Under the pieces are notes generated by a model that saw nothing but the letters and a program-made list of their open reading frames with translations, was not told the origin of the DNA and ran no database searches. This document shows, piece after piece, positions 2,318-40,636 of a DNA stretch of 40,636 nt. Origin of the DNA: Phoronis australis (Eukaryota; Animalia; Phoronida). The position numbers were made by a program, and so were the translations under genes. Every line of letters begins with the position of its first letter. Within the stretch, counting starts at the first letter, position 1. The stretch spans positions 79,891 to 120,526 of the forward strand of contig NMRA01000627.1 in NCBI GenBank assembly GCA_002633005.1, in the 5' to 3' direction.

Positions 2318-2424
2318 CTCAAGGTACAGACTCTGGAATCGGTTTCTGTGGTTACGTGCTAGGTTTTTTCTCCATCGTCCTAGTTTTCCTCACCTTTCCT
2401 TTCGCTCTCTGTTACTGTATGAAG
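2318..2424 (+). CDS. STOM: Stomatin-like exon: hydrophobic hairpin
   Basis: ttccctgtttcag|CT CAA GGT...ATG AAG|gtgagt; encodes (A)[35 protein letters not shown], with the conserved Cys and the hairpin Pro. Confidence 0.92.
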
Positions 2425-8400: not shown

Positions 8401-11400
8401 AACTGCATTTATGGATGTTATGCATCGAAAATAGTCACGATCTTAGTCATTTGCTGATCAGTATGACATTTATGGTCTGTTGCCTTTATTTATCAAACTA
8501 TGAATCATTGGTTTCACTGAAATCTTAAAAGTCTTCGATTAGTGGTCGTTTTTGCCGAGTTTGCCTTGAAAGAGGCCGTCTTTTTCCTCTCTTGGCTGTG
8601 CAGTCCAAACCATTGTTTTCAGAACTGGTTGCCCCAATGACGGCCACTAGATGAGTCACTGGGTCAGATTCTATACCAAGGTCAGCCCAAAACAGATCTC
8701 TATAACCAAAACTTTCGTATCAACCCAGTTTTGTCACCAGCGCGGCACTTAAGTTGTTGGACTGACGCGTGAATCTGTTCTCAGAATTGTTGGCGCCTAT
8801 TGTTATTTGTTGGAATATGGTTTCAGCTGTCATTTCAGCTGTCGGTAAATGATACCGAGATATTGCTACACCAGTGGCCCATAGTATTGATTTACAACTT
8901 GTTAAAGAACCTTTAAATTAGTTTGAGGTTAATGATGTAATAACTGATTGATCAGTCTGTAACCTATTGATTTTTACTCAGTAAAATTAATGGATATTTT
9001 CACGCAAGTAAAACAACAAAAATGGATTCTTCCTAAAGAAGGTAATCCTGGATGCCCGATTATAGCCAGCAACAACTGCCCTACTGACAAATTTCTCAGT
9101 TTGCTGAGTACCATGTTCAACAATTTGTCCTCACCCTTTCTTCATATGTTAAATATACAGATCATTTTCTTAATATAATTAAAAATATAACTGATCTACC
9201 CAAAATGTCCTCCTAATTCCTCTTTATGTTAAAAGCAGTAATCCATTTTTTGTTTTATTTAGTACGTATTTTTATTCTACTTTTCGACAAACAAGTGTAT
9301 CCTTTAGAGGATCTGGATGGCCTCTTTTAGTATCGAATTTATTTTCTACATTGGATATTTTCATAATGTAGAATGGCTGTGGAGTTGGGTTCAGTTAGAC
9401 TCTATACCAATTGCGTCATGTGACCATGTCTTAGTAAAATGTAGTACAAAAAGTTACATTTTAATAGCTGAACAACACTAAGAATAAAGGACCAAATTTT
9501 ATTTGATACAAGACTTCAAGATATCTAAGTTCTCAATAGTGTCATTTCATTTCTGTTTTATGCAGAAGTTAAGATTTTTTTTCACGAAAATTACAAATGT
9601 CTTATTTTTTTATTGCCCCTCATGGAATATTCATTTTAAAAACAAAATTTTCTAGCAATCTATTTGAAAACAGTGCATAAAACATTATATCGCAAAGTTT
9701 TGTCTGCATCTACAATGTTCCGAATTTAGCTCAAATAATTTGGAATTTTTCTAAGGTCCTATGCAACTTTATTTTGTGTTAGTAATTGATGCTTATTTTG
9801 TTGATAAAGGTCCACTTATTTTCATGCTCCTCCCTGAATGCATTAGTGTTTGGCTGGAATCCAACATAACCAGCTATGAAAATTGCTTTCACCAGTCAGG
9901 AAATGCAATTTCTTTTCATTACCACGATCAATATTGTAGATTCATTGTGACCCTTGTTTCTAGGGTAAATATTTGATTGTCGCAAACTTTCAGTCATCAG
10001 TGGCTTTTAAATGAGAGTGTTCATGGTTATTGCAAATTCACAGTGCCTAGACTCCATTGTAATAGAGGGCACTATCGTTTACAACATGTAATAGTGCATT
10101 TCCAATTGCTGTATTTGAAAACATAGCCTGGTTGTTGCATTAAACAGATTGAGCAACTGTTTGTCTGCTTCAGATGTTGGCTAACAGTCTAAATAGGTCA
10201 TGAGCAATGTTTGTAGGTTTGCCTTTAGGAAGCTGTTGCGAAATGTTTGTTTAGTGTTGAGAAAGCGATTTCGTTGTCAACATCGTTGTCAAAGCACTAG
10301 TGTTGAGTAATTTTTTCTACTGTGGCTGAACACAACAGGGGGAGGCAGTGTGGCCTGGTGTGATAGGTACCCACTTTCTTTACTGGAGGTCATGGGTTCG
10401 AGTCCCACTGGGTCACACTGCTAAACCCTTGAGTCAGGTTTCTATCTCCTCAGCTCGGTTTTAACCATATATTAACAAAGCATAAAAATGGTTCCAGGTG
10501 ATCAGTGCAATGGGCCCATATACGCGGCTTGTGCAAGTCTGGTATAACATGTATCAGACCACCTGCAGTTAATTTTTTAGACACAGCATTGTTAAAAATC
10601 ATTATTTAATTTCTGTTTGACTCAGTCTTGCTACATTTATGTTAACCTAGAAAATGATGAAACAGAATTTGTAGTTATCATGTCGATTTTATCTTGAGAA
10701 TATAATGTATCATTTCAGACAATAAATAAAAAAAACACTGAGTTCCTTTGTACACTGATGTGTCTATTAGGTGTGCGTTTGAGGAGTTGATGTTAACTGC
10801 CAGGGGGGGGGGCTTTTATGGAATAGTGGAATTGATGGTGATGGGGTGGTGGGATTAGTATGGTGGAGTGGATTAAGTAGTGCTGGGAGGAGGGCTATTA
10901 TGGGGGTGTGGCATTGCTGGTGGTGGGGGAGGATTTTCTTCTTAACTGAAAAGTACCCTTCTCAGAAGGCACAAGCACCTTTCTTTCCTATGGGTGAGGG
11001 CCCTGTCAGGTGAACGAGGGTGCTGCATGCTGCTGCTTATTACAATAGACATTCAGCACAAAGTAAAATAGAAGTTACCCCACTCGAATTACCATTGTTT
11101 AAATCTCTCCCCATCATATCGCATCAAGTCTAGACATGTATATACTGTGTTTTATAACTTGCAGGCTATCTGCCTATACTATACAACAGATTACAGTAAC
11201 TCAAATTTCATCTAGACTTGCAGTTCTGAACCTTCAAATTGCTTTCATCTTGAATTCTGTAGAGCAGCAAATTTAAAAACGACGTGCATGAAATGCCTTT
11301 GGTGTACTGCACTCATTTTTTGTAGTCGTCTCCTTCTTGGTTGGATTTGATTTTATTGTTCTGGTTAAAAGACAAATTGACATTTATTCCAACTATAGAA

Positions 11401-14400
11401 AACATTCCTGTGTACACTGCTGCGGTTGTTTTTCATAGTAGACAGTGTCGAAGGGTCCATTTTAACTTTCATGCACTTTTATAAATTTGTGTGACTGTGA
11501 AAGTTATTGTGCGTGCCCCAATCTCTCGTAGGTATGGTCTTAGCAAAGAGGGTCCTAATTTCCATTTTAATTTGTATACAGTTCATTAACGTTACTTGTG
11601 AAGCCAGTCATTATGTCTGAATACAAAAAATATCAATTCGACATACACTGCAGTGTTTCACTTATATAAAAATGCACCATTGCATTCCCAATAACGCCGC
11701 TACTATAACTCTATAACTATTTTACCTTCAGCCGGGCATATGACCTTTGACAAAATTGGGAACCCGTAACTTTAATTGTAAGGATTTGCTGCTAAATTTT
11801 GGATCATGTAGCTTTAATTCTGATAACCTTTACCTTTGTTGACTTCAGATTCTGACCAAAGACAGCGTGACTGTGTCTGTGGATGCCGTCGTCTACTACC
11901 GCGTGTTCGCTCCCACAATCTCTGTGGCCAACGTGGAGAACGCGCACCATTCAACTCAACTCCTGGCTCAGACTACCCTGCGTAATATCTTGGGCATGAA
12001 GACACTGGCTGAGATCCTTTCTGATAGAGAGTCTATCAGTAACTACATGGCGGTGAGTGATTGCGCTGCAGTGGCACTGTAGCAAATTGGTTTGTATCCG
12101 TTTGACTCGACTATGTTAAATCTTCTGTGTATGTATATCCTTGTTTACTCACAAATGTTATATTTTTCAATTATCTTTATTGTGAGCTCCTTTTTGACTA
12201 ACGACTCTCTAATGATATATCTGAAACCCAAATCCTTATTTCAGTGAACATAAATATTGACCTTAAACTAGGGGCATTGCATGAAAAGTTCCCTATTTAT
12301 TTTCAGCAATTTTAACAATTTAACCTTGACTTAACTCAATGTGTGTATCAAAGACAAAAATTGACTTACTAATGAGAATAAAACAGCATTAGAAAGAGTC
12401 ATCAGTGTCCACAAATGTGGTGAAAAGCTAAATGTAATGTAGCTGAGTGCCTATATGGACTGTTCCATGCAACTTGCCATGGCACCTTCACCTGTTGGAC
12501 CAGTCTAATGTGATTTGAAGCAGGGGTGAGACTGCATCAGACCTTTGACACATGCAAGTTTGGGGGATATACATGTTGGATGGAGTTAAGGGCACGTAGC
12601 ACTGTTCTCTTTGCTCAAGTTAGTTCTTTCAATAGTTGACTAGGGAGTGTCTTCTACCAGTGGTTTGATTTTTACTTTGAATTCTCATTACTGACTGGGT
12701 TGAAAACATTTCTGCTGCCTTATTTTCCCTTATTGCAAGATGGCTCCTTGGTCTTCTTGTGGTGTTAACTTTTAAGGAATGGGGTATCAAAATGGTATTT
12801 TTGAAGAGGAACAGCATTGAATTATTGGTTTCAGCCCCCTGAAACCTAAGTGTCCTGTAGGTATGAATGGAATTCTAATCTTGGGGTTCAAGACAATACA
12901 TTTCACATTCATGTGGACTTTTTCAATGGACGTTGCTCGTTTTGTTTTAGGAAAATCTCGACGACGCAACAGATCCATGGGGAATCAAAGTGGAACGCGT
13001 GGAAGTGTGAGTAATAAGTGCAATGACATTGTGTTTAATAATGCTGTTATTCCTAAGTAATAACCAGTGATTTGTGTTGGTGGTGATGATATTGGTGTTA
13101 GTATTGATGAGATTGGTGTTAGTAGTGATGAGATTAGTGTTAGTATTGATGAGATTGGTGTTAGTAGTGATGATATTGGTGTTATTAGTGATGATATTGG
13201 TGTTATTAGTGATGATATTGGTGTTATTAGTGATGATATTGGTGTTATTAGTGATGATATTGGTGTTATTAGTGATGATATTGGTGTTAGTATTGATGAG
13301 ATTGGTGTTATTAGTGGTGTTAGACCACACAACACCAATAATCTGTCTTTTTAGAAATTACTTAATGACTGATCGAATATTTGAATTATTTACCAAAGAA
13401 TTTGTATTTAAGGTAATTGTCCACTTCTCGGGGAAGTATTTTAAAGTTCAATAGTTGCATTTTGTTTGAAATTGTATCTGTATTTTTCATTGGTGCTCTT
13501 AATAGTTCATTTAAAACATTTAAAAGCCAAATATGCGTGCTGTTAGGGACAACTTCAATTTATTGCAATTGTTTGGCCAATCTTCACCAGCCATTTTCAG
13601 GCTTTTGATTTTTAATGCTTTTAGCGTTTTTGAACATTTACTTTCTGTAGTGCTTGGGTACATTGGCATGAAACTTTGCACACTTATTTTATGGTACTTG
13701 GCCGAGGGACATGTGTCTCACGTAATGTTCCTTGAGCAACGGAGGTATTAACTGAGGAAAATGAAGTCTTGTGTTGATGTTTTGGAGAGGTTCTTTATGA
13801 GTGATGTCTTTGTTGTTGCAGGGTTAACGGAAATGTGAGGCATGCTTTCTTACATAGACTAGTTTTAAAGTGAAATCACCCAAAGTTTAAGCTACCTTAA
13901 AAATTAATGTTCAAAGGAGAAATGACAATTTTCACAAAAATGGAGGTTACATGGTTATAAACAATTGTTTGAAGGTTTTTGGAATGATTTTTTTCACTCG
14001 TGGAGGATTTGCATATATGTACTTTTAAATTTGAAAGAGCTTCACGGAGGTCACAGAGGTTGACATTATGTGGGACCCTAGAAAAATTGCAAATTTGGCT
14101 AACTTCAGAACACTGTATCTCAGAAACAGCTAATATGTAGCTTTCAGATACCATGCTTTGTGTACTGTGCTCTAAATTCTGTTAGGAATTGATTTTTGTT
14201 GCCTTTTGTTTTTTGGTAATGGTTTTTCATGAACATTTTTGTGGAAAAGTCTTATGCTCGACGACTATATGATTTTGTTATTTACGGAATTTTGTGACTT
14301 GAAAATAATGCTCTGTCTCTGTCGACCTTCTATTTTTATTTCATGTGTGTGTTACAGAAAAGATGTCCGTCTGCCCATGCAACTGCAGAGAGCTATGGCC

Positions 14401-25586: not shown

Positions 25587-27899
25587 ATGAAGACGGTATA
25601 CATCATTGCCTTGTTGATTGTCACCGTGATGTTCTCAGCTACGTGAGTGATTGTGTTATCCAGCAATATAAATATACCCAGGGAGCATGAAAGTCACAAT
25701 GCCTCTTTCGCTAACCCCCGGTTGGACGTTCCTATAAAATTTGATTTGTTGATTTGTTTACTATGTACATGCCAATTATCGTTTTGTAAACCTGACAGTT
25801 TTGAACCAATTTTTTTAATTTTAAAATCCAAGAGTGTTGCCAAAATGCGAAATCTAACAGAGTGTAGAGAGGTTATATAAGTGACTACTTAAACCAACAG
25901 TGAAGTAATTTCAATGATTCAAAACATTTCTGCCGTATCAAGACAAATAATTTTCAAATATGGACCCTTCACAGTTGCTGCAGATAATTTGGCAATCGTC
26001 TGATATACTATGATAACGTGCCCGCATTTTGAGAACCAGTTTGATGCCCGGGGGAAAACTGGTTCTCAAAATTCGGGCACGTACATCAGACCATTGTGCC
26101 AATAGTCAGGCATTCATCCAAAATTATACAAATGAGAATTGTCTATTGTCTACCCAGCTAATGGAAAACTGGTTCTCAAAATTCGGGCACGTACATCAGA
26201 CCATTGTGCCAATAGTCAGGCATTCATCCAAAATTATACATCATTAATAATTAGTTGTACCTGAGGTGCCGTTTGATAGAATTACATTCTTCATTAAAAA
26301 TTTAGGATCAACAAGTGCAGTTACTTTTACAAGAAACGTGATAGACTAATTACTCCAGCTCTTCGGTCGTACTAACACTATGAATATCAAAGGCCAGTGG
26401 GCCACATTGTCACTATAAGGCCCATACCAACACAACTGCGCACAGTATTAAAATGTAATGCTTGTGCCGACAACTGAGAATTCGTGCACTGTATACGTGA
26501 CTACACTCTATCACAGTGCTAAACTTTGCAGTATAGGTGGCGCTGTGTCAGAGGGTATATACGTGACTTCAGTCGCGTACGGGACTTCCGGTACCTCAAC
26601 AGCACCGCTATCCGACCATCCATCAAAACGATGTCAAGCCCTGTGTTGGCCTATTGTACTACGTTAGTAGTCAATTAGCCAGCTAGGTTGCAGAAATAAT
26701 GTTTTACACAAGAGATGCCACGTCAAAGCATTAGACACACCTACATGAAAACGATGAAGTTTGAGAGCTCCGCCCCTTCCGCAGAATTGTCTATTGTCTA
26801 CCCAGCTAACAAATGGACCAAACAGGGCTTGGCTTTGTTTAACTTACAATGTCATTGTTGTTGGGGTATACGGGTAGGTTTGTAGCTATGAAGTCACGTA
26901 TACCGTACACGTGTACTTGTCGGTACACACGTTACATTTTATTGCTATTGTGATGTTTGTATGTTTTTAGTTTTAGTCTCGCATGTACGATACTTAGACG
27001 AGAGTTGTAAGAAAACGTTGTTGTAATGCAAGCCGCCATATTGGAATAGATTTAGACTAGTTGTTATCATCATGAGCTGAGTTTTTATTCCTCTTACTAC
27101 ATAAAGTATAACAGCCAAGAGCAGTTATGCTAGTACGGCCTACTGTTATGACCCGTAAAGTAAGGGCATACTACGCCCCTGCACAACTACATGTAGATTT
27201 CTGAATTCAAACTGGCCGTATGTGACATCGATATTTTTCTAGATTCCAAGGTACCTAAACTACACGGTTAACGGACTCATAAACACGGTCACGGACGCAT
27301 GAACACGACTCACGGACCTGCAAACACCGTCCACTGACTCACAAACACGGTAACGGACTCGCAAAACATGATCCCTTCACCCACATACACGGGATATGGA
27401 CTCGTATTCACGAGGAACACGGTTAACGGACCGCCAAGCACGGGTCACGGACTCATCGGCTTCCTGGGTCAGCTGACCAATCTACATTTTGTCCATAAAC
27501 CGTAATTAGCGGTCCGTTAACCACGGTGTTTCTTCGTGAATGTGAATCCGTGTCCCGTGTATTTGGGTGAATGGGTCGTGTTGGTGAGTCCGTTCCCGTC
27601 TTTGTGAGTCAGTCCGCCGAGTCGTGTTCATGCGTCCGTGACCGTGTTTACCCGTTAACCGTGTAGCCAGTTTAGGTACCTTGGATTCGTTGTTTCACAC
27701 ATTTTCCCGCGGGCAATCCAATAAAAAAGGTCATTGTTATTTTAGCGTCACGGAAGCTAAGGTTTGCTGCGCTGATCCACCCAAGGCGGCCAAAGTCGAG
27801 CGCCGCACGATCAACACTGAAAAGAGATTCTTGGACGTCGAGAGAAATACAGACACCGATCTGCGCCGCAACGCACTTGTGCGGCCTACGCGGTATTGA
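25587..27899 (+). CDS. Small secreted prepropeptide A, join(25587-25642,27746-27899), 69 aa: MKTVYIIALLIVTVMFSATVTEAKVCCADPPKAAKVERRTINTEKRFLDVERNTDTDLRRNALVRPTRY
   Basis: Acceptor ccttttacag|25552; ATG at 25587 with A at -3; classic signal peptide; phase-2 donor AC|gtgagt matches the phase-2 acceptor gttattttag|C GTC; stop at 27899; AATAAA at 27966; a paralogue has the same structure. Confidence 0.8.
26016..26082. repeat. 67-bp hairpin mini-element (27-bp stem, one mismatch)
   Basis: ACGTGCCCGCATTTTGAGAACCAGTTT ... AAACTGGTTCTCAAAATTCGGGCACGT. Confidence 0.9.
26053..26240. repeat. Exact 78-bp direct duplication with a 32-bp spacer
   Basis: 26053-26130 equals 26163-26240. Confidence 0.95.
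26423..26963. mobile_element. MITE/foldback with long imperfect terminal inverted repeats
   Basis: TAAAATGTAA..TGTGCCGACAA..GTATACGTGACT versus AGTCACGTATAC..TTGTCGGTACA..TTACATTTTA; boundaries approximate. Confidence 0.55.
27246..27684. mobile_element. Foldback element with ~210-bp inverted arms built of AACACGGT(C/T)ACGGAC subrepeats
   Basis: Termini CCAAGGTACCTAAACT / AGTTTAGGTACCTTGG, with ATT on both flanks (possible 3-bp TSD). Confidence 0.85.
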
Positions 27900-27965
27900 G
27901 AGCGTTAATCAGTAAAACCTGTCCCTACATTGGGCCATAATCCAGACATGTGGAAATATACACTG

Positions 27966-27971
27966 AATAAA
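27966..27971 (+). terminator. Poly(A) signal of peptide gene A
   Basis: AATAAA 67 nt after the stop; its context is conserved with 39428-39433. Confidence 0.65.
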
Positions 27972-29354
27972 GAGACACAATGAGTACTGTAAACTTTTCT
28001 TTTCTTCTGTCATCATGAATTGCAAGAGCTGGTTGATTGCGACAAACTCGACCTCATTTATGATCGCCAGATTATTTGCTTTCCTCGCCTCTCTGGCCGT
28101 GATCCCATGCAGTGCCCAAAGCACCAGTTTAAGACTGAACACTGATACTCTAGTAAGCGTGTTTTCGTCACCTGCTTTTTGAGCTGTTGTAGCTAGACGC
28201 ACATTAGGAAATAGCAATAATAACTTAACGAGATATCGGCGCTAGGGTTTCCGCTAGAAGTTCTCCGATTCATTAATGTAATTTGAATGCACAAAATTAT
28301 GCAATCGTTCCACACCTAACACCGCGGCACTAAGAGGACGAGCTCAAACATTCAAGGTACCACGAAAACAATTCCATGTGATAGAGATCAAAGTAATGTT
28401 GCGTCATTCTCCTAATTTGGTTACAAAAAAGGTTTCGTCTTGAGAACTATAGTGTCGCTCGTTACAAACGCGGCGTTTTGCTAGTTTCTTGTCGATTCTT
28501 CACTAAAACCTCATAACAATAATACCGTGACGCTTTGAAATTTACACAACATCTGGAAAAAGAACAGTCACTGAGTTGTCGATAAAAAGGGATTGGCCAA
28601 TAAGTGGCGTTCCATGCCATGATCATGATCAATGAGACGAAGACAGCGTGTGACACACAATCCGGCATATTGGTGACGGGCGATGTGTAAACAAAAGCAC
28701 GCCGCCTTATGGAAGCCGGGAAATTTTCAGAATATAATTCGAAATTTTAAATACTAACGAGGTTTCAAAATATTGCAAACATAATGCAGTATAAACCCGT
28801 GATCCAGACATTGCTTTAACGGTCATATAAGTCATTTCGCTGACAAAATTCCTAATGCTTTGGCTGAAATTCTCAAGGAGTGCTAGGGCCTGTGAGGTGT
28901 TGTCGGTTCAGTCAAAAAGATAATCACTGACATTTAGACATTTTATAAAGTTTGTAAAATATTTCCTTCATACTACTTGGGAATATACACCCATTAACCT
29001 TTAAAATTGCATAGAACCTATTTTCTAGTTGTTTATAAACCGACAAGACGGTCATCTGTCTGGGGGCCACTCACCCGCGTGCCATTAAATCACTGCATTG
29101 CAAAGCATTTAGTCTGGGCTTGTAATGGAGCTGATTTTTTGTCAGCGTTAGTTCATCCTGTAGGTCTACACTAAATACCTCCAAAAGGCTCACTCAGCTA
29201 AATTTGCCTGAACTTTCATAGATCTAAATTAGTTAAAGTCCTTCTCTCACGCGTTGTTAACCCTTATTACATGGTTAGAGGATGTTATAAGGATTCAAGA
29301 AGTACCTACTCCATAACTAATACACGATCCGTACTCCACAAAAAGGTTTAAATG

Positions 29355-30318
29355 CATAGGCGGATTTAGGGGGGGGGGNCCCTTGGCTGGCGCAAAAAAA
29401 AATTAAAGCAGCAAGAGCGTAGGGAAACGTTAAGTTTATTAATTTGCTCCGGTAATTAAAATTATACGGATGAAAAAAGATTTAAATGTGTGCAGTTTTA
29501 GTGTTGGGGGGGGGCTCAAATCCAATTTCAAGTGTCAAATTCGGAACACGGCGCATTCGTAACGGAACTATGGCTAAGTATAAGCACTCCCGCGATATCC
29601 CAGGCGACCGGCAGTGGCGCTGCGCACTACGACTCCGTTTCCGTCGTCTGCTCCACTGTGCAATGGAGAAAATTTACTTCATTTTTTAAAGAAAATGGAA
29701 CCTGAGTGACGATGAAAAAGCAGAAGCTGCTGGTAAGATGTGAATTTTAATCGAAGCCTTAGTGAATCACTCCGAAACTTTGTCAAACTTTAACTTAAGA
29801 CGATTTCCAAAGCAATCCTGTCATTATTGCCAACACGAAAAACAGATTTTGTCTTTTGGGCATTTGAAGACTATTTTAAATACAACAAATTTGTTAAGAA
29901 CCGATTGCTCAAAATATAAAACGTGTAATAAGCATAACAAAAAGAAGTAGGTTTCGCGCGCAAACGCTGTGAACCATAAACAAGTAGGTCTCTTAGCATA
30001 GATGCTTTACTGAAATCGTGGTGGTGTAGTGGCAAAGCACGCGCGTCCTATCACTCAGGTTCTGAGTTCGAGCCAGTGAAAGTCGCAATTTTTCCTGTTT
30101 TTTTTTCCTTTTTTCTTGGATAATACATCAGAAATCAAGGAAAGTGCTTGATTTTTAGAGGAAAAAACAGAAACATTTCCTGGGCGGGAGGGGGGCAAAC
30201 CCCCCCTCCCGACCTCCCCCCATTCGGTGTTATGCGCATCTACAATCGTGGTTGGCGCAAATGCTTACAGCAGGACAAGATGTTGGGCCCCCCTTGTGAT
30301 ATCCTAGATCCGCCACTG
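29355..30318. mobile_element. Non-autonomous hAT-like element
   Basis: Imperfect TIRs CATAGGCGGATTTAGG / CCTAGATCCGCCACTG of the same type as 16765-19462, with G/C-run subterminal sequence; TSD only partly matching (TTTAAATG/TTTACTCA). Confidence 0.55.
30015..30115 (+). other. tRNA-like Pol III unit (pseudo-tRNA or SINE head) with poly-T terminator
   Basis: A box TGGTGTAGTGG (30022-30032), B-box-like GAGTTCGAGCC, followed by T runs; no convincing cloverleaf. Confidence 0.45.
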
Positions 30319-30502
30319 TTTACTCACTTTTGTTTGGATATCAGTTGTCGCTGTTTCCAGTTTGTCAATTCGAAGACCCAACGCTGTGCCAATGTCGTCC
30401 AATTTTTTGTTCAGCGCACTTTCCAAGTTCAAAACAAAGGCTTTAATTTCGTCTAAATCCGTTGAAGCTGACACTGGCGCACTATGCGTGACCGTTCCGT
30501 AT

Positions 30503-30895
30503 TTAGATGTTGAACAGATTAAGCAAGTAGGAACTTGAAACGTTATTCATGTAACTTAAAAATGATGTGGTGTCGCATTGTGACAGTTGTGGAATAAATT
30601 GGATCCTCAAGTGATCATACAGAAAGCATCCTGTTAAGAAGTGAAATTCGTCTTCAATTTCATACAAATTGAATCTCTTGAAATGTTTGCACAGCCTTAG
30701 TTCTCTATCTACTCTTCCTCGCGCCAACTCGATTTCATGAGTATGAGAACAAAATATTGTCTGTTAGTTATATACCTGCGAATCTCACCACTTTCAGATA
30801 TGGAGCAACATTTAAGTACTTATCTAACACAGCAAAAAGTACAAGTTTACAACTATTTCGAACTTAACGATCCCATTCCTGGAAGGCGCAGTTCT
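30503..30895 (-). mobile_element. 3' fragment of a LINE ORF2 (C-terminal CCHC-like region, RTE-X/CR1 group)
   Basis: IELARGRVDRELRLCKHF...EIEDEFHFLTGCFLYDHLR matches the pattern IE.GR...R..RLC..C...IEDE.HFL..C..Y..LR. Confidence 0.8.
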
Positions 30896-32752
30896 TAACA
30901 CTCTNGCCGGAAATGTGGGTACGGAAATAACCGATGACAACCGGTAATCATACGCTCAGAGAGAACGGTCAAGTACTGTTCAAAAATCGCTTTTGGCAAG
31001 AAAGGCGAAAAGAATATAAAGAAAGGGTGTCGAAAATAAGATTTTATGTAGTAAGTATTTTCGGATACTGGAACCACATGGGCAGTTTGAGAGAAGGACA
31101 TTAAGTGAGATTTCGAACAGCACTGCCAAAGAGTATCTTTGGCACTGCTTCGACGGTCTGAAGTCAGAGGTCGAAATATGCATTTGCACGGACCCAATTT
31201 CCCGAAAGGTGATTGGAATTTTCTACTTCAGATTATACCAAGGAATAATAATTACACCGATATGCAGACGTTTGCCGATCTAGAATTTTTTTCTTCTATT
31301 CCATTACCAGAACGGGTACTGTTGCTGCAATTTGACGTACCCTCACGATGAGTCAGGGCACCTCGGCCGAGAGATGCGACGTATTCACGGACATATGATA
31401 ACATTAAATACCAATCGTCATATGCAAAGAGCAGATAAAATTTGGAAACTAGATAATTAAGTTTGTATCAAAAGAACCAACATGAGAATCAAAAACAATC
31501 AAACAATATAACACAGCTTTTACTTTCACGGTGACACTATAACGTTTTCAAGGACATGGCCGTCATTGAGGAGTCGTTCCTCAACTGATGCACAATGAAC
31601 TGGCGTCACGAAAATAGACGGGAAAAGTCAATGATTTTCTGATCTCAGTCGAGGTACAAAATTGGTCTCAAAAAGCTTTTTAATTTGATATTATAAAGGA
31701 GGTAAACATTATGGCATGTTACTCATTACTTGATATATATTATCAAGATTCTGAACTAGATATGGCTTTGAGGTTACTCAAAAGCGTTTCCATACAATCA
31801 ACATGCACCTGGGGTCTAAAATGTCTTTCGCCAAAAATGTGCTAGGTGGAGCACGGCAGAAGCCATGAAAAAAAACTCACTCACGTCACGTTTCTAGAAA
31901 TTTGACCGGATAAAATGTTTTAAACAAACAGCTGCTTCAAACAGGCAAGGGCTTCCTGAAAATTTGAATTGAATGACTGAAAAATATGCGTGTGAAAAAT
32001 AACAAATCGCTTTGTCAGTCGAAGTTGATGGGATTCTCAAATTAAATCAGACCTTTCCTGTCACATCTGCTTCCAATCGGTGTCAGTGAAATACAAAGAG
32101 GACAAACTACAACGATGAAACGTTAGATGTTCGAAATCCCGACTGCTCATACGTCTAAATACAACAAAACGTCCAAAAGCAAATGTGCAAATCTCAATGC
32201 GCATGCCTCACATAACCTCATGGATTGAACATAAAAACTTCTTAAATTATATCATTGAAATTTTTACGCAAAAATGTATCATATTCATTACACCATATCT
32301 TAAATGTTAATTGTCATCTAGTGTTTGATATTACTTTATTTCTGTTTCTGTTGACAAAGGACGTTATTACATCCGAAAATTTCAGTTGATCAATTCTTGT
32401 TGTTTTATTTACCTATTTATATTCTACAAATGTATCAAGAAATGGTAGGACAATATTGTATTGACCAGTTACAGAACACTCAGTATTCCACGTTATACTC
32501 CTGTAATTGTAGCGAGAGATGACGATAACATAGTTGCTAGGGTAGTCGATGCGAATATAGGGAGCGCTGAATCAGCACGACTTGCCGTGGATTTGCATTT
32601 CACATCATAACTGAAGTGTTCCATAGCAACTCGAGTACGATTCTCAGATTTGAGTACGCGTTTGGAGTCTACTCGAAATGTGACATTAAATACGCTTTTT
32701 CGAGTAGGCCTGCGACTCCAGTGAGCGGGACGAAATCTCGTCTTGGTCTGAC

Positions 32753-33130
32753 GTTCGAATCGATTAAGCCCGGCTTCAATGTAGGATATTAGCAGCTCGA
32801 CAGATTATATCAATGTTAAACACCATGTTTTTGTAGCGACTATGCATGAATTTTTCGGGTAAACGTCAGTAATCGAACAATATGCTGGAGATACGAGGGG
32901 TTCGAATAGACTAAGATCGGCTTCAATGTGGGATATAAGCAGCTTGATAGATTATATACATGTTAAATACCATGTTTTTGTACCCATTGTGGATTCATTT
33001 CTTTGAGGACACGTCAGTAATCGAATAATTTGCTGCAGATACGAGTAGGTTCGAATAGATTAAGATAAGTATAGAGTGGGTATTCGCTGTTTGGTAAATT
33101 ATATAAGTGACCAACAAATTGTTTCTACAC
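32753..33130 (+). repeat. ~148-bp tandem repeat, 2.5 units, ending in the gene B core promoter
   Basis: Units start GTTCGAAT at 32753, 32900 and 33049. Confidence 0.85.
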
Positions 33131-33165
33131 ACTGACTTGAAACTAGTTGCGACAATTTGGTAAGT
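33100..33165 (+). promoter_or_regulatory. TATA box, non-coding exon 1 and splice donor of peptide gene B
   Basis: TATATAAG at 33100-33107; ...GCGACAATTTG|GTAAGT (donor 33160-33165); homologous to 21436-21504. Confidence 0.62.
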
Positions 33166-36100
33166 ATGTTCTTCTAGATTTTCGAAATAATATTCCTTTG
33201 TATATGTGTCGACTATCTGTCAGTGGCGACAACAAAGGTGTACTGAAATCCCAGATTCGCGGTCCATTGTTCTGTTGGACAGGTCAATGAGTGAGTGAGA
33301 AGACTAAAATGTTACACTCTTCTCAGTCCTATCATGCAAGTGGACTTGGATAGTAAACGCTACGAACAAGACACCTATTTTGATCAATGATATCAGTTCT
33401 CTGACAAAGATTTTTTTCAGTACCTTACAACGAAAAGAACTGATTTTTTTTGTTTTTCAACATCAAAGCTGAGGCCAGAGAAATCGTCAAACATGAGGAC
33501 ACTTAGAGATGTTTCGAACTATCTCAACACTATTAGTTGACAATCAGAGTATTGGGGCAATAAGTTCTGTAACCGCAGAAGACGCGTATTTGTAAGAAAT
33601 TTGATTCACTTTTTTTAGAAAATGTTTAATTTTGTCTGCACTTTATAAAAATACCCGTAAACTGCCTCAATTCTTGTGAACGATAATTAACAAAGCTGGT
33701 ATTTGTAGGCAGTCAAAAGAATTATGAAAAACTCAACTATAAGTCCTTTTAAGCCAAACGGCAGTTCCAAGAAACTGACTAAGTTCACTTTTGACTTAAG
33801 CCCAAAATTTGTTTCAACCTTCAAGCTTTGAAACTTGCACATCTGGTATGATTCAAGACAAACTGAATACGAAATGTAAATAAAAAAACTATCAAATCAA
33901 ACTCAAGATCTCTTTCGGACTTTGGACAAATTCAGGTTTCATCTTAATTAAGACTTAGGATTTGTCTTAGCTAAGCAAGTGTTCTTGCATAGAGCGATAG
34001 GACTCTTTAGTTTCCATTTTTTAAAGAGTTGCCGACTTCCTCGCCAAAAAACTTAACTCTTTTTTTCATTTTCAACCAAAAAGAGTATATTACTTCTTTA
34101 CCGTCATGAATTGTCCAAGCTATGTAAAGATTTACATAACTATCGCACGTCATTTGAATAATTTCAGGCTCTTGGTGCATTTTATATGGCGTGATTTCTG
34201 GATGATATGTATGAATTCACCGTGTGTTTCCTTAGGGCAATGACATATGGATGAGACTTGTCTACCTTCCGCCCTTGTTGCTTTGTACCAGATTATAGAG
34301 CAGTGAAGGCCCCATTTCCTTCGCTCAGTAAACTGAGAGACGATCGTTCTCAGCAAACCCGTGTTCGCATTTCTACCTTTCCTAATTCATCAATTTCGTG
34401 CAAAACCAAAACCTCTGATCTGTCCACCTGTTTTTCAAAACAGAAAACGAAAAGTTTCCGCCCCGAAACTCCACTGAAAGTAATTAATCATTAAAACAAA
34501 ATACGTAGCTATGTAGACACAATGTTATACATGTAGATGTATTGCACTTGAACGTAATATATTCTAAATAGCTTAATTTACAATGGCTAATTGCTCTCAA
34601 TATTCAAGAGAAATTGTCAATTATTGAAAGGATTTTCCGACAGAACAGCTCTAAAAATTACTCGAGACACGTTTGGAAAGAAGTACATACTGTACATGTA
34701 CCAATGTATTTTTTCAGTTATGATAAGTGGTAAGCAATTAGAAAACACAACAGACATTTCTCTAAGTCACTTTATGGTTAAATATGACTAAATTGGGTAA
34801 GGAATATCGATATAAATTGTTCACTTTAGATACAAAAGTTCGATCAAATTCAACGAAACTAACGATTCTGTATGTTATAAAAACGGATAACGAACTCCTA
34901 TCTATGAATGACAATCGATCAGCTATTTATAATTTCTTAATTTGCAACTCAATGCATCTGACAATCACACGCAAGAAATTTGAAGAATACACCAGAACCC
35001 ATGAAAATCGTCTGCATTAAATCTTACGACGGAACCACGATACCTTAAGTACAGCCCAGAGCATCATGCTTGCAAACCGCAACATCCTAGGTACGAATCA
35101 CAACATCACACGTACAAATAAAAATCACCTATCCATACGCAAAGAATGATTTTCACATGATTCTTACGAATAACACTAAGATCGCCAAGTCTGGATTTTC
35201 TTCTAACGGTTGATCGGCTTTTCGACTCGTCATCGCATGTAGGATCTTTTGCTCACTTGCATTATTCTGTTGTCTGCGCATGATTCAAACGGCTGATACA
35301 GGGATTGTGAAGTACAGTACATGTACAATATGAAATGATGTGAGGACGAAAGTCTGGTGTGTTACCTTCTATCGATTTCCTAATATTTTGTAACGAATAG
35401 CATTCTCCGTCAAATGTATATCTCACGTACATAGAAAGAAATTTATTAATAAACATCACAAACCCCAATATATCGTATTCTTGCGAACTTTCGCCGAGAT
35501 TTTGTATTTTACCAGACCACCACCACTACGTATACACAATCGCATTGCCTGCCAGTTAATGCGTGAGTTGCATGTAAAACACAAAGTTCTTATAGAGATT
35601 TCAGATGTATCACAACACAAATTTGTTTTAAGGTCATATATATGTAGTATCGCTTTCCATAGGATTTTTTCTGGGATTATGCGCCAAGAGTTCGCATTAA
35701 TCACAACACGAATCAAAATCAGAGACCCAACTCCTTGAAGGAAGGATGTCAAAAAGCTTTGATAATATCACACGAACGATTACAATTAGCGTGAAGCTGC
35801 ATTTTGCTCTATTTAGAGGGGATAAAAATGTAAGATTTTCAACTTCCACGATGACATACATGTACGTGCATGCAGTGCCTGTTGGTTTGTGTATCGGGAC
35901 TGGAATGCTCTCATATCAACCATTATCAAGAGGGCGGTTTTGATGAGAATGAAAGGCCTCTTTTCATCCAGTTTAACAAGGTGAACTGTAGCTATAAAGT
36001 GTATGTGTGTATGATACTTAACACTGTCCATGACACTGAAAATGCCATGATTCTTTTGCAGCCTGAAATATTGCCATACGAGCCAAGCCCACTACAATGA

Positions 36101-36466
36101 AGCCAGTATATATCATTGCCCTTGTGATTGTCAGCGTGATGTTCTCGTCAGCTTCTTGAGTGATTATGTTGATCCGGCAATGTACCCTCACTTTGCAATA
36201 AAGTTGTAATTCCTTCTTCGCTGACTCCTAACGTCCAGTTCCAACATAACCCGCTCTTACTTTACTCGCCTCCTTAACTTGGTTCTTGAGTGCGTTGGTC
36301 ACGATCCTACTACGAACGCTACAAATCTCATAGCTTCCTAATTGGCGCAGCCACCTCTGTGTCGCTACCCTGCAAATTCCCGACTCCACCACCCAACGTA
36401 TAGGTGGCTGGAAGCACGAAGGGCTCAGGAACTACAATTCGTCTCCCATCCTTACACTTCCCACCA

Positions 36467-36704
36467 GGAGGCAGTGCGGCCTGATTGATAAGTGCCCGCT
36501 TTCTTTACTCGAGGTCGTGGGTTCGAGTCCCACAATGTCACACTGCTAAACCCTTGAGTCAGGTTTCTAGCTCCTCAGATTCGGTTTTAACTACATATTA
36601 ATAAAGCTTAAAAATCGTTCCAGGTGATTAGTGTAATGGGCCCACATGTGACGCATGCGCACGTCTGGTACAGCGTGTACCAGACCGCCTACAATTGTAT
36701 TTTT
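36467..36704 (+). mobile_element. tRNA-derived SINE, copy 2
   Basis: Collinear with 10341-10578; B box GGTTCGAGTCC; perfect 10-bp 3' stem GTCTGGTACA-GCG-TGTACCAGAC (36663-36685). Confidence 0.85.
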
Positions 36705-37204
36705 ACACTTTACCGCTACTAACAATCCCACTCACTCATTACCAGACTCTTTCGTCGCCAATGCACACACGTATTGCCAGTTCTCAACCTCATGACACCT
36801 TTTCTCCACATCGGGTCAACCGTCCATTGTCAGTGCCCCGTCTCACTCACCAACCCCTTTCATCATATATTGGGGCAACTGTATTACCAGTTTCTCGTTC
36901 ACTACTCATCTTCATCTCGGGGGCTGCTGTGTTGGCATTGTCTTCCGTCGCTTCCCGTTATTTTCTTTTGAACTGTATTGCCAGTGTCCTTTTCACTCAC
37001 CATTTTTCACACTAGGGCGCCTATATTAGTTGCCAGTGTCCTGATTCACTCACCCCGTTTTCGGGCTCCTACCTCCCGGGCACTCTTTCCAGTCCTGATT
37101 CTTGTTGCTTTACCCCATGCCCTCGTACATGCTAGAATGTTTAGTTGTACCCCGCTAATCCCAACTTATCTCAACTTATATCCTGCCATTACCCGGCACT
37201 GCCG

Positions 37205-38470
37205 ATGCAAGCCTGTTGCTGACATCATGCTTGCTTTCAAACTGCCCCGTCAGATGGCGCAGCGATTAGTGGGAATAGATAAATTAGTTGAAATGCGTGA
37301 TTGGTGTCTCTAACATTATGAGCTTGTGGATGACGTCATGTAAGTTATCAAATTGTGCACATGATGTGGCGCATCGATTAGAAATAGTTGAATTAGTTGA
37401 ATCCAACTAATCTGAATCCCAAGTCATCTCAACCTATTCAGCACTGTGCTATTCCACTAATTCAAGTAATTCTACCAATTGTTGCGCTATCTGAGGTATT
37501 ATTGGCATTGTGAGAAAGAAAGACCGGAGTCACTGCCTTGCCTGCAGGTGGTGCAGCGATTTGTGGTTTGAGTTGAATAAGTTGACATGCGTGTTTGGTG
37601 TCTCTAAAAGTGGGAGCTTATTGATGGCGTCATATATCTTACCTACCAGCCCACAGGTGGCGTCATCTTTTAGTGGGAATAGCTGAACTGCTTGTTTTGT
37701 GTCTCTCAACTTGTGATCTGGTGAGCCTTTTGCTGACGTCATGTACTTTATCTGTCTGCCTGCTGGTGACGCAGCGATTTATGGGAATAGTCAAATTAAT
37801 TGAAGTTTTTGTTCTGTGTCTCTCAAGTTGTGGCCCTGTTGCTGACTGCATGTTTGTCTTAACTATGAGTCTGTCCCTGCAAGTGGCGCAGCGATTAGTT
37901 TGAATAGTTGAATTAGTTGAAATGCGTGTTTGGTGTCTCTAAAATTGTAAGCCTGTTGATTATGATTTTATCTACCTTCCTACAGATGGCACAATGATTA
38001 GTGGGAATAGTTGAATTAGTTGAAATTCGTGGAGACTCTAAAATTGTGAGCCATGAGTTGATCAGATCTTCTACGTCATCTACCTGCCTACAGGTGGTGC
38101 AGCTATTAGTTAAAGAAATTGTCAATTGACATGCATTTTCTACTTGACCAACATAATTTCATCTAGACGTTATTTAGTGAATTCCCGCAGGTGGCACATC
38201 GAATGTAGTGGGAACTGCTGAATTAGTTGAAATGCTTGTTTTGTGTCTCTAAAGTTGTGAACCTTTATCTGACGTCTGTTTGTGTAACAGAGGTAGCTTG
38301 AAATATACGAATTTGCTGGGAACTTAGCACTGACTTCTGAAACATCATTTACCTATGAATGAAGTCACCATTTCATCTTTCTTTGCACTACAATGGTTTA
38401 GCGCCTTATATCCAGTATTTATAAGAGTAGTAGAAAAAGTATTGCAGGTGGCGCTGCAATTAGTTGAACT
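37205..38470 (+). repeat. Diverged ~110-bp satellite, about 10 units plus one inverted unit
   Basis: Consensus CAGGTGGCGCAGCGATTAGTGGGAATAGTTGAATTAGTTGAAATGCGTGTTTGGTGTCTCTAA; anchors near 37251, 37363, 37545, 37654, 37763, 37880, 37983, 38091, 38188 and 38445; inverted unit about 37400-37493. Confidence 0.9.
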
Positions 38471-39719
38471 ACAGCTTCCTATTAATCGATTAGTAGGTCC
38501 CTACCAAAGATTCAGACATTATTCCCGTTCTATGTCCATTATCTGTATGTATTTCTGTCTATACGTTTCACTATTTCTGTTTACATATACCTGCGTATGC
38601 AGCATACATTACGTCTGCTATGTACCTTACCGAGTGCCTTATGTATATTCCTTGGTTGTTATCAATCCATGTTAGCTTGATTTTCCTCTTAGATTTCAGT
38701 TACTCTCATTTCGACACCTTGTTACGATGATTGACATATTTTTAGTGTCATGTTATTCTGTTCTATGTTAGTCTTTCTCTTATTTTCGGCAGTATTTGTA
38801 CTCTCTTTTACTCATGCTACTTTTTGTCAGTTTCGCACGCTCTCCCTCGGGAGGGCGGATGCATCCTTCTGCAGCATCTGTGTCAGATTGTCACCCACCT
38901 GTACAGCTCAACATATTATACATGCATAAATTTTGTAATTATCCATATCTGTAGTAGTTTAGTTTGTCATAATACACATGACATGTTTTCTCATCCTCAG
39001 GTGTTGTTTCACTGTAACCTAGCTTCGGTATCGCTTCGCAGTTATTACAGTTATACAAATTATCTTTAATTATTAAATTATTTTATGTTAGCTATACTGA
39101 ATCGTACTTTTATTGACTAACTCCGCATGCAGTTTTAATACTTAATCGCCTATACTGTACGTTGATATAATAGACGTTGAGATCGTGGTTATTGATGCTC
39201 ATAGTTCCCCACGTTCAAGTTTTTATTCAACTTTATTAATTGTTGCTGCTCAGATCGTTAACTGTTTTTTTTCCAGTGTCTTCACTGCTGACGTCAAGGC
39301 CTCTGACATGTCTTTCCCTAACCGAAGGTCATCTGGCGACGAGGAGGGAGTTGTAATCAAAATGGGTTTGCGCAAGCCCGTGCCAACTTTATTATGGTCT
39401 ATATAATTGAAACATATGAAAATACCGAATAAATCGACATGATGCGTGCTACGTGTACTATTTCTGTCTTATCCAACTGCACGAGTGTTCGATAGATTAC
39501 TTAGTAGTCGGCTTACCTCGTCTATTGCCGTGATCCGAGTTCCCAAGGCATCAGTTCATGTCTTATTTTATGCTTTGAATACATGTTTAAACACTTACTA
39601 CCCTGCACTATAGATGTCGCTGTTATCTCAAACCCAATACTGACTTGACATTAGCTGTTTCACGACACCTGTGCTGCCTATTTTAATTTAAAGGGGGACC
39701 GAAAATATATTAACTCATT

Positions 39720-40636
39720 CCTGGATTTTATGACAAATCACAAATTTAAGACCTTCAATTACATACCCTACACGTCTTAGCCCCACATCAGCAACTTTAA
39801 TAGATAACTTCTTTACATCAACATCATACGGTCACATACATACACACTCTGGTATTCTTCTCTTTTCGATTTCAGACCACTGTCCTATCTTCATTGCTTC
39901 AAAATCGATAAAGAAAATCCACCCTAAACGCCCTACTTTCGTTTCAAAATATTCTTACACACCGGAAACAAAAACTCACTTTCTCAATAGCTTACGGAAC
40001 TGCAATATCATGGAAAAGCTAGACCGCAGCTTAGATTGTGACCCCAGTGACTACTACGCAATACTCAGTGATACTTTGACATATCTCACGAAAAAACACT
40101 TTGGTCCAAAAAATGTTAGACATAATAAACACAAACACGCGCTTAACTCATGGATTACACCTGGTATTTTAATTTCCATTCGTTACCGAGATAAACTGTA
40201 CAAACAAACCAAGACAACCCCTCGCAACACAATCCTACGCTACATGCCACAACAATCTTAAAGTATACAACAAGATTCTCAAAAAAACTATTGAGCAATC
40301 TTATTATTATGACACATTCGAAAAAGGGAAGTCTGACATAAATAAAACATGGGATACAATAAAGACAGTTATGAACAACGGCGTTCGAACAAAAAATGAC
40401 ACCCCAGAATGTCTCTTACGTTCAGATAACACTAAAACCAGTGACCTACCCGAAATGGCAAGTTTATTCAACACCTACTTTACCCAAATCGGCCCATCCC
40501 TTTCTGAATCAATAACTATGATAAAAAACAAGAATTTCAAAGCCTATCTTCCCACGCCAAACAAATTTAAGTTCTCTTTCAAACTAATTAATAATAAACA
40601 TGTACTAGATATTATAAGAGACATGGACGCAAAAAA
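39720..40636 (+). mobile_element. Frameshifted LINE ORF2 (CR1/L2 group, Crack/Daphne-like), end of the endonuclease and linker; runs off the window
   Basis: IDNFF..SGIL..ISDHCPIF (APE end), SWITPGILISIRYRDKLYK, KTWDTIK, MASLFNTYFTQIGPSLSESI. Confidence 0.88.

Follow-up and report, generated by a model that had tools for sequence, protein, structure and literature searches.

Conotoxin gene superfamilies consist of tandem paralogues with a conserved signal exon, a fast-changing last exon, a fixed cysteine frame and dead copies. Invertebrate neuropeptide precursors are short and combine a signal peptide with several mono- or dibasic sites. In the Mytilus CRP-I cluster, as outlined in PMC10138031, tandem paralogues likewise carry a conserved signal exon, a fast-changing last exon and a fixed cysteine frame, and are intermixed with dead copies, some of which were called on a lost canonical splice site. 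The Mytilus myticalins, cationic Pro/Arg peptides, are encoded in three exons with a non-coding first, and have a conserved signal peptide, a variable linear cargo, a dibasic site, and pseudogenes and differences among individuals (as described in PMC5577615). At the level of single splice sites, single-nucleotide polymorphisms are reported to yield personal, i.e., genotype-specific, splice junctions, where individuals vary at the splice-site dinucleotide, so that junction reads appear non-canonical when mapped to the reference, or fail to map (Stein et al. 2015, PMC4678817). A G-to-T change at donor position +1 is known from F7 IVS6+1G>T (PMC3787739) and FANCC c.165+1G>T (PMC6280755), and is normally null.

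The gene pair described here, genes A and B, lies in 40,636 nucleotides of Phoronis australis DNA (hereafter the window, i.e., the whole stretch that was analysed). Gene B is a small, likely secreted peptide gene of no known family, expressed and correctly spliced in the species. It is probably a tandem paralogue of gene A, expressed and made up of three exons, in which the T at position 36156 of the window is a real variant, likely a splice-null, segregating beside working G alleles of one locus. The features of the two genes are as follows.

21436..21498, plus strand: TATA box and non-coding exon 1 of gene A, from alignment with B and from spliced reads at 25551 with exon-1-like loose ends
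25552..25642, plus strand: signal exon of gene A, with ATG at 25587 and a GT donor at 25643
27746..27984, plus strand: exon 3 of gene A, 50 codons with RR, KR and RR sites, stop 27897-27899, AATAAA at 27966, molecule ends at 27984
32773..33106, plus strand: tandem 147-bp unit in 2.3 copies (TRF period 147, 78% matches), ending in the TATA box of B
33100..33106, plus strand: TATA box of gene B, TATATAA, aligned with the TATA box of A at 21436
33140..33159, plus strand: first, non-coding exon of B, beginning at 33140 or slightly before, GT donor at 33160
34756..35021, plus strand: intron-1 block common to A (22051-22321) and B, 72.5% identity over 273 bases, E = 9×10−38
36062..36155, plus strand: second exon of B, preceded by an acceptor, its 5' UTR part 35 bases long, ATG at 36097, 19 codons plus 2 bases encoding a hydrophobic, signal-like peptide
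36156..36156, plus strand: polymorphic +1 base of the exon-2 donor of B, T in the window and G in other haplotypes
36156..39276, plus strand: second intron of B, in phase 2 and 3121 bases long, joint 36155>39277 seen in RNA reads
39277..39449, plus strand: exon 3 of B, 42 codons, stop 39404-39406, AATAAA at 39428, poly(A) at 39449
39323-39328 (RR), 39371-39376 (RK) and from 39374 (KPVPTL), plus strand: motifs in the translation of B exon 3

The sequence-only reading held that the landmarks of A recur in B in the same order, and the likeness is indeed well above chance for the TATA box with exon 1, the signal exon and the 3' end. The exon-1 regions reach a local alignment score of 142 (random window segments, maximum 40, none of 440 reaching it), the exon-2 regions 233 (maximum 43, 0/427) and the 3' UTRs alone 69 (maximum 34, 0/461). 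The assignment of exon 3 also stands: 27746-27990 aligns with 39277-39450 at a score of 41 (maximum 32, 0/469), an acceptor precedes 39277, and junction reads and the poly(A) position at 39449, taken from a loose end in an X8 contig, mark the exon in RNA. The 3' end aligns as had been said, though the likeness begins within the coding region of B, at KPVPTL. The shared signal peptide was right in that the signal exon recurs (78% identity in exon 2, with differences at 8 of 56 coding and 11 of 35 UTR bases) and wrong in that B has one extra codon there. The duplication is old rather than recent: identity amounts to 75% for exon 1, 78% for exon 2 and 72.5% for the intron-1 block.

The claim of different cargo held in part. 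Between A and B, the coding portions of exon 3 fail to align (score 14, reached by 441 of 475 random segments with a mean of 16.8), and the protein alignment does no better than shuffles (1522 of 2000, local). Four residues are nevertheless common in the first ten codons, as is a C-terminal PxPT block. Gene A has a second in-frame stop at 27906 and a relic KPVPTL at 27915-27932, and the KPVPTL within the coding region of B corresponds to this in-frame KPVPTL behind the two stop codons of A. Thus, the cargo of A and B is not wholly different, because the C-terminal KPVPTL block is common to both.

The joint between exons 1 and 2 of gene B, 33158>36061 (cut +1, GT..AG), is found in 10, 6 and 29 RNA reads, and 15 molecules in RNA run X7 have an end at 33140. 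Read depth over exon 2 rises to 94 in X6 and 246 in X7, and falls to about zero on the sense side past 36156. The junction 36155>39277 was found in all three raw RNA runs (64, 97 and 254 reads, starting at 39, 44 and 79 places), on the sense strand only, and the spliced mRNA has a length of about 290 bases. For comparison, the GT..AG joint of gene A at 25642>27746 has 503, 440 and 398 reads. The resulting B/A junction ratios are 0.13, 0.22 and 0.64, a spread which exceeds what a null allele of 20% explains.

The donor of exon 2 in the window is TTGAGT (36156-36161) where gene A has GTGAGT at 25643, and the unspliced frame ends after 20 residues; both had been read correctly from the letters. 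At this donor the analysis covered DNA runs X1 and X2 and RNA runs X6 and X7. In X1, G occurs at 36156 in two contigs (depth 7.8 and 3.5) and T in a third. With a depth of 4.4, the T contig stays under the level of 5 at which caution is advised, and the assembly may itself derive from X1; over 36104-36211 (108 bases) this contig shows no difference from the window. In DNA run X2, G accounts for the entire depth (56.6 of 56.6). The G allele for which a search had been proposed is thus present in three contigs, two from X1 and one from X2. Since both bases occur in DNA contigs, the T/G difference at 36156 is a polymorphism and not an error, and the T variant is present in samples of two studies.

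When the spliced B reads were sorted by their exon-2 variants, all of them fell to non-window haplotypes (87 + 7 = 94 of 94 in X6; 217 + 28 = 245 of 245 in X7). The window haplotype, which carries T, accounts for 0 of 94 and 0 of 245, with an upper 95% bound of about 3% of reads in X6. The main expressed haplotype (C at 36134, T at 36142) supplies 87 of the 94 and 217 of the 245 reads, and its contigs end at 36152 in both DNA runs, short of the donor base; direct linkage to G exists for just two haplotypes, the minor expressed one (7 and 28 reads) and one absent from the RNA reads. Run X6 does carry the window haplotype: seven unspliced reads of 101 aligned, representing about four fragments and antisense in five of the seven, match the window at 99% or more, and the two that cover 36156 both read T. 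Window-type A is expressed in X6 (87 of 422 and 95 of 531 reads, about 20%) and absent from X7 (0 of 385 and 0 of 460), where B is also without any read of the 99%+ class. If the window types of A and B are presumed to share a chromosome, the expected share of the T haplotype in X6 is 0.18-0.21, at which none of 44-47 independent fragments has a probability of P = 2×10−5 to 2×10−4. With T and G both in DNA contigs and no spliced read from the T haplotype, the segregating null allele is the supported one of the explanations offered earlier.

On chromosomes carrying T, U1 snRNP would be unable to use the exon-2 donor, which matches U1 at 4 of 11 bases (6 for the donor of A). Intron 2 would be retained, the frame would stop after 20 residues and the RNA would probably be degraded. 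The TT..AG junction that appears on mapping would be a reference bias, produced by reads from G-bearing individuals. The apparent TT-AG intron is most likely such a bias over a splice-null allele, because no spliced reads come from the T haplotype although X6 holds that haplotype. The in-frame cryptic GT at 36147 was rejected as a rescue site, since none of the joints listed and no loose end speaks for its use, the loose ends behind exon 2 lying at 36156 only; premature polyadenylation at the intronic AATAAA at 36197 was rejected as well, as X6 has no sense reads beyond 36156. The sequenced copy is likely a dead version coexisting with working ones, a fairly ordinary kind of variation. It differs from the cases in PMC4678817 in that the dead base is in the reference, the intron is constitutive, and the gene is a short orphan of an invertebrate. 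The change is identical to those of F7 and FANCC (PMC3787739, PMC6280755); unlike in these, no cryptic or TT rescue was seen in B (0 of 94 from the T haplotype), and the variant occurs in the samples of two studies and is no rare disease allele.

That B is a fixed, recently dead pseudogene fits the TT donor of the window and the early end of the unspliced frame. This is hardly credible, save in the paralogue form treated below, since B is transcribed and spliced at 36155>39277 in all three raw RNA runs, and the earlier suggestion of fixed pseudogenisation is refuted by the abundance of this junction; furthermore, both DNA runs contain G haplotypes and the spliced B RNA is polyadenylated. That the gene is normal and the T an error of assembly or base calling is just as improbable. 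X2 has only G at depth 56.6 and the T contig is shallow and maybe from the assembly's own source, but this contig equals the window at all neighbouring variant sites, the T recurs in both unspliced X6 reads from another study, and an error would leave unexplained why the spliced reads lack the window haplotype. Only slightly less remote is the reading that the TT donor is truly used, i.e., that the main expressed haplotype shares the T, or has some other pair than GT, and is spliced almost fully at a non-canonical site. The junction does map as TT..AG, the contigs of the main haplotype end before the donor base, and, according to PMC6280755, human cells use TT better than any other non-canonical donor except GC. 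However, the window T haplotype supplies 0 of 94 spliced reads in the sample holding it, and the TT sites in PMC6280755 had near-full U1 pairing and required enhancers, against a U1 match of 4 of 11 here. The main haplotype would also have to depart from the T contig within 36156-36165, because this contig is unbranched over 36104-36211, yet the main haplotype equals the window at 36135-36155 in RNA. It agrees with gene A at 36129, 36133, 36134 and 36142, and therefore an ancestral G is parsimonious.

Unlikely, though well ahead of these three, is that the expressed haplotypes are separate, near-identical B paralogues elsewhere in the cluster and the window copy is a silent pseudogene, present in some individuals only. 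At least three to four haplotypes, 4-7% apart, occur per run (at least four in X1, at depths of about 8-9, 7.8, 4.4 and 3.5, and three in X2). The same two B types are expressed in X6 and X7 at similar ratios (about 7-11% and 89-93%) and recur in X1 and X2; haplotype number and constant expressed types are also compatible with near-identical paralogues. The flanking intron letters in the loose ends depart from the window at several of 30 bases, and mussel peptide families show such behaviour in the account of PMC10138031. Against separate paralogues, the 40.6-kb window contains a single set of B-like exons and no further ones, window-type A and B are both present in X6 and both absent in X7, the spliced reads equal the window in the first 30 bases of exon 3 and at the end of exon 1 (agreement 0.99-1), and pooled animals account for the haplotype number equally well. 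Versions of gene A with 7 of 15 bases different replace one another between samples, and B haplotypes 4-7% apart can therefore be allelic.

For the segregating locus preferred here, the B product is predicted to be a precursor of 62 residues that begins with a signal peptide and contains two dibasic sites (RR, RK; gene A has RR, KR, RR). A prohormone convertase would probably cleave it into short linear peptides, and the best candidate for the active part would be the proline-rich PxPT piece at the C-terminus. A and B both start with Met-Lys and reach an 11-residue hydropathy maximum of 3.2, a measure of hydropathy alone. In its putative signal peptide, dibasic sites and short length B resembles invertebrate neuropeptide precursors, from which it differs in lacking both an amidation glycine before the dibasic sites and a repeated motif, and in varying strongly in amino-acid sequence within the species. 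Unlike CRP-I and the conotoxins, neither gene has in exon 3 a conserved cysteine frame of the CRP-I, conotoxin or knottin kind (no cysteine in B, two adjacent ones in A). According to PMC5577615, the signal and the entire mature peptide of the myticalins lie in exon 2, which is followed by a phase-1 intron, whereas exon 2 of B encodes the signal only and is followed by a phase-2 intron. The cargo of B, in exon 3, is near neutral (6 K+R, 5 D+E) and without PRY-type repeats, unlike that of the myticalins described there, and no sequence link between A/B and myticalins was found. As to function we can only guess: defence by secretory cells or signalling at the surface comes closest to an even chance, a neuropeptide or hormone is a weaker guess, and a gamete or pheromone signal and a toxin are each doubtful.

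Homology searches gave little. Homologue searches with exon 3 are weak because exon 3 alone is short. Pfam gave no family for exon 3 of A or B (E up to 1), and word-index searches, covering near lengths only, no candidate for either. The full HMMER scan, covering exon 3 of A only, returned a sole match, P0121, which was rejected as a repeat-inflated hit to a 2018-residue tandem-repeat protein in eight stretches. The ESM Atlas gave three bacterial or unassigned hypothetical clusters at 0.89, below lead level, for A and no usable match for B, and Rfam had no match in the window. Three peptide motifs had no relevant match in full-text literature, and four motifs in two neuropeptidome supplements (one file each) matched receptors only. 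A literature search on segregating splice nulls in marine invertebrates listed nothing relevant among the best 15 of 94 matches, and one on the TT donor, narrowed by two further terms, had no match. Among the other proteins of the window, the stomatin showed no starred group in a tree of 26 of 121 proteins.

An annotation based on this reference would make B a pseudogene or give it a TT-AG intron, either of which is likely wrong. The splice finding is ordinary and its chief use is as a warning. The remaining interest lies in a pair of short, well-expressed orphan genes missed by standard searches, whose C-terminal peptide varies and of which a null version occurs naturally; any animals homozygous for the null would offer a ready test of peptide function. 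The versions of gene A differ at 4 of 7 residues of the PxPT core, and 4 of 5 coding variants in the signal exon of B change the protein. Because of this variation, and of the presence of the B null in the samples of two studies, it is conceivable, though we consider it rather unlikely, that with A and B an undescribed, lineage-restricted peptide family comes to light, its members being abundant, secreted and linear, with a PxPT core at the C-terminus, and subject to diversifying or balancing selection. If so, the locus would be a natural on/off and allele-swap experiment for a recognition system (defence, self/non-self or gamete signalling).

Repeats are also present around B. The promoter-proximal segment is partly duplicated, the exon-1 region matching 32901-32958 and 32754-32768 by blastn, and intron 2 contains a dispersed repeat at 36486-36708 and a degenerate array of about 110 bp at 37242-38270 (repeats D3, D9 and D12).

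Genes A and B lie on the same strand, downstream of a stomatin gene, in animal DNA (GC of the window about 39%):

2318-14640, stomatin/band-7 (MEC-2-like) gene, six exons with canonical introns, 5' end upstream
21436-27984, gene A, three-exon peptide gene
33100-39449, same strand as A, gene B, its paralogue

The best named match of the stomatin/band-7 protein was a hemichordate protein with 81% identity, tree support not being firm. The sequence-only reading held that B has lost its exon-2 splice donor, and the change itself stands: B carries T at position 36156, against G in A, and without splicing its reading frame closes after 20 residues. Three raw RNA runs (X5, X6, X7; about 18-19% of each covered) and one RNA contig run (X8) were mapped to 25300-39700. 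Junction 36155>39277, proposed as a check, was seen in all three raw runs (64, 97 and 254 reads, starting at 39, 44 and 79 places, sense strand only), at 5-23 reads per million records; the joint of exons 1 and 2 had 10, 6 and 29 reads, and the junction of A had 503, 440 and 398. The 3' end of B is marked by poly(A) on one contig at 39449. X8 covers exon 3 and has no depth in exon 2, an absence that is uninformative. Sense depth fell from 94 (X6) and 245 (X7) to about 0 directly past the donor, therefore the expressed B haplotypes are spliced almost completely. B is a live orphan peptide gene, and the copy in the window is quite probably a splice-null allele that segregates.

Two DNA contig runs (X1, X2) and RNA runs X6 and X7 were mapped to 36007-36456. 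The G allele sought at 36156 was found in two X1 contigs (depth 7.8 and 3.5) and in X2 (56.6/56.6), and T was found in one X1 contig (depth 4.4), identical to the window over 108 bases. Four haplotypes are told apart by variants at 36129, 36133, 36134 and 36142, namely that of the window, H1, H2 and H3; H1 and H2 are each linked to G at 36156 in contigs, and the H3 contigs end at 36152, short of the donor. All spliced B reads belong to H1 or H3 (7 and 87 of 94 in X6; 28 and 217 of 245 in X7), with none of window type. Among 101 mapped B reads of X6, seven are unspliced, from about four fragments, with five antisense; X6 contains the window haplotype, because all seven are at least 99% window-like and both reads over the donor carry T. 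Window-type A is expressed in X6 (87/422 and 95/531 reads), and finding none of 44-47 fragments of window type has P = 2×10−5 to 2×10−4, given linkage between the window types of A and B. In X7, window-type A was absent (0/385 and 0/460 reads), as were window-like (99%+) reads at B. Four of five coding variants in the B signal exon (including 36107, 36133, 36134 and 36142) alter a residue; a Val4 to Glu variant (15/199 X7 reads) could impair the signal peptide. In one G haplotype the donor matches the full consensus, because position 36158 is A there.

Three explanations had been offered for the donor change. Spliced B RNA refutes a fixed pseudogene, and a base-call error is contradicted by T in the X1 contig and in two X6 reads; a segregating null allele agrees with T and G in DNA contigs and with the lack of window-type spliced reads. 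Mapped on the window, the junction reads TT..AG, at first sight a non-canonical intron, and the donor base of H3 lies past its contig ends, as would suit real use of the TT donor. Such use is very improbable, however. The X1 T contig is unbranched over 36104-36211, at low depth, and H3 equals the window at 36135-36155, therefore H3 must differ within 36156-36165; H3 also agrees with A at each of the four variant positions, and both points favour G as its donor base. The site in the window matches U1 at 4/11 bases, whereas the TT donors that worked in the reporters of PMC6280755 had enhancers and near-full U1 pairing.

That the haplotypes are near-identical paralogues rather than alleles is unlikely. 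The three to four haplotypes per run, 4-7% apart, would fit extra copies, but they fit pooled animals equally well. Furthermore, the versions of A, different at 7/15 bases, replace one another between samples, therefore divergence of such size can be allelic here. The B splice variant is genuine, and its likely explanation, a segregating null allele, is a mostly ordinary one. PMC4678817 describes splice-site SNPs that make a reference disagree with the RNA of other individuals, a known pattern that the B donor variant resembles, and PMC3787739 treats +1G>T as a classic null.

The landmarks reported as shared by A and B do align: the scores of exon 1, exon 2 and the 3' UTR were reached by 0/440, 0/427 and 0/461 random window segments. 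A and B are 72-78% identical over exons 1 and 2 and one intron block, therefore the duplication is old. The signal-coding part (8/56 bases differ) is better conserved than the adjoining UTR (11/35). Spliced at the observed junction, B encodes 62 residues, with a hydrophobic N-terminus, then RR and RK sites, and no cysteine in exon 3. No homologue of exon 3 was found for A or B in Pfam, in the Atlas or, at near lengths only, in a 5.8-billion word index, nor for A in a full HMMER scan, such blanks being weak with short queries (42-50 residues). Three peptide motifs had no relevant match in a full-text literature search, and four had no relevant one in two neuropeptidome supplements.

The claim of different cargo holds in that the exon-3 coding parts do not align above chance (441/475 random window segments reach the score), but a KPVPTL block is common to both genes. 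KPVPTL of B (39374) has its counterpart at 27915 in A, in frame with that gene but past two stop codons (27897 and 27906). All six codons differ, at the third base only and always synonymously, a pattern with a chance of about 6×10−6 before allowing for the block having been picked afterwards. The majority version of A in reads (81/126, 98/130 and 106/106) ends in PMPTTG and is like the relic block at 15/21 bases, against 10/21 for the window's version. Because a read version of A resembles the in-frame relic behind stops, internal duplication and fast change are suggested. Selection has probably held the C-terminal block in both genes, with a later or parallel copy arising within A, which would now terminate after the first copy; from this history, the PxPT peptide behind the last dibasic site is put forward as the putative conserved working part. 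The versions of the A C-terminal peptide (27876-27896; relic at 27915-27938) differ at 7/15 bases and 4/7 residues.

Mussel myticalins and CRP-I peptides, as presented in PMC5577615 and PMC10138031, share with A and B a non-coding first exon, a conserved signal and a variable cargo, and likewise have dead copies varying between animals; A and B lack the defining features of these families as given there and are not assigned to them. The remaining interest lies in the two peptides, which are unrecognised, variable and predicted to be secreted, and in the likely natural null of B.

Several repeats lie in and around the genes. Upstream of A, 19082-19446 and 20750-21133 form a direct repeat of about 370 bases, 1.67 kb apart, with the first 256 bases 95% identical. 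Intron 1 of A holds an assembly gap (22495-22973) followed by a TAT/TAC simple repeat, and just 5' of the exon-3 acceptor of A is a nested inverted repeat (27257-27650; arms of up to 32 bases, 100% complementary), likely a MITE-type element. A dispersed repeat with a B-box-like word (36486-36708 and 10361-10582), likely a tRNA-derived SINE, is covered heavily by RNA from other copies and may be the source of the antisense reads on the window haplotype. The frames with frameshifts at 39734-40636 had no Pfam match at cut-off and resemble a LINE retrotransposon fragment from the endonuclease side. Intron 2 of B contains a degenerate array (37242-38270; units of about 110 bp). In intron 1 of B, the sense strand at 34439-35881 is thinly covered by RNA and also by X8 contigs (depth 39 and 19), overlapping a block common to intron 1 of A; this RNA is pre-mRNA or another transcript.
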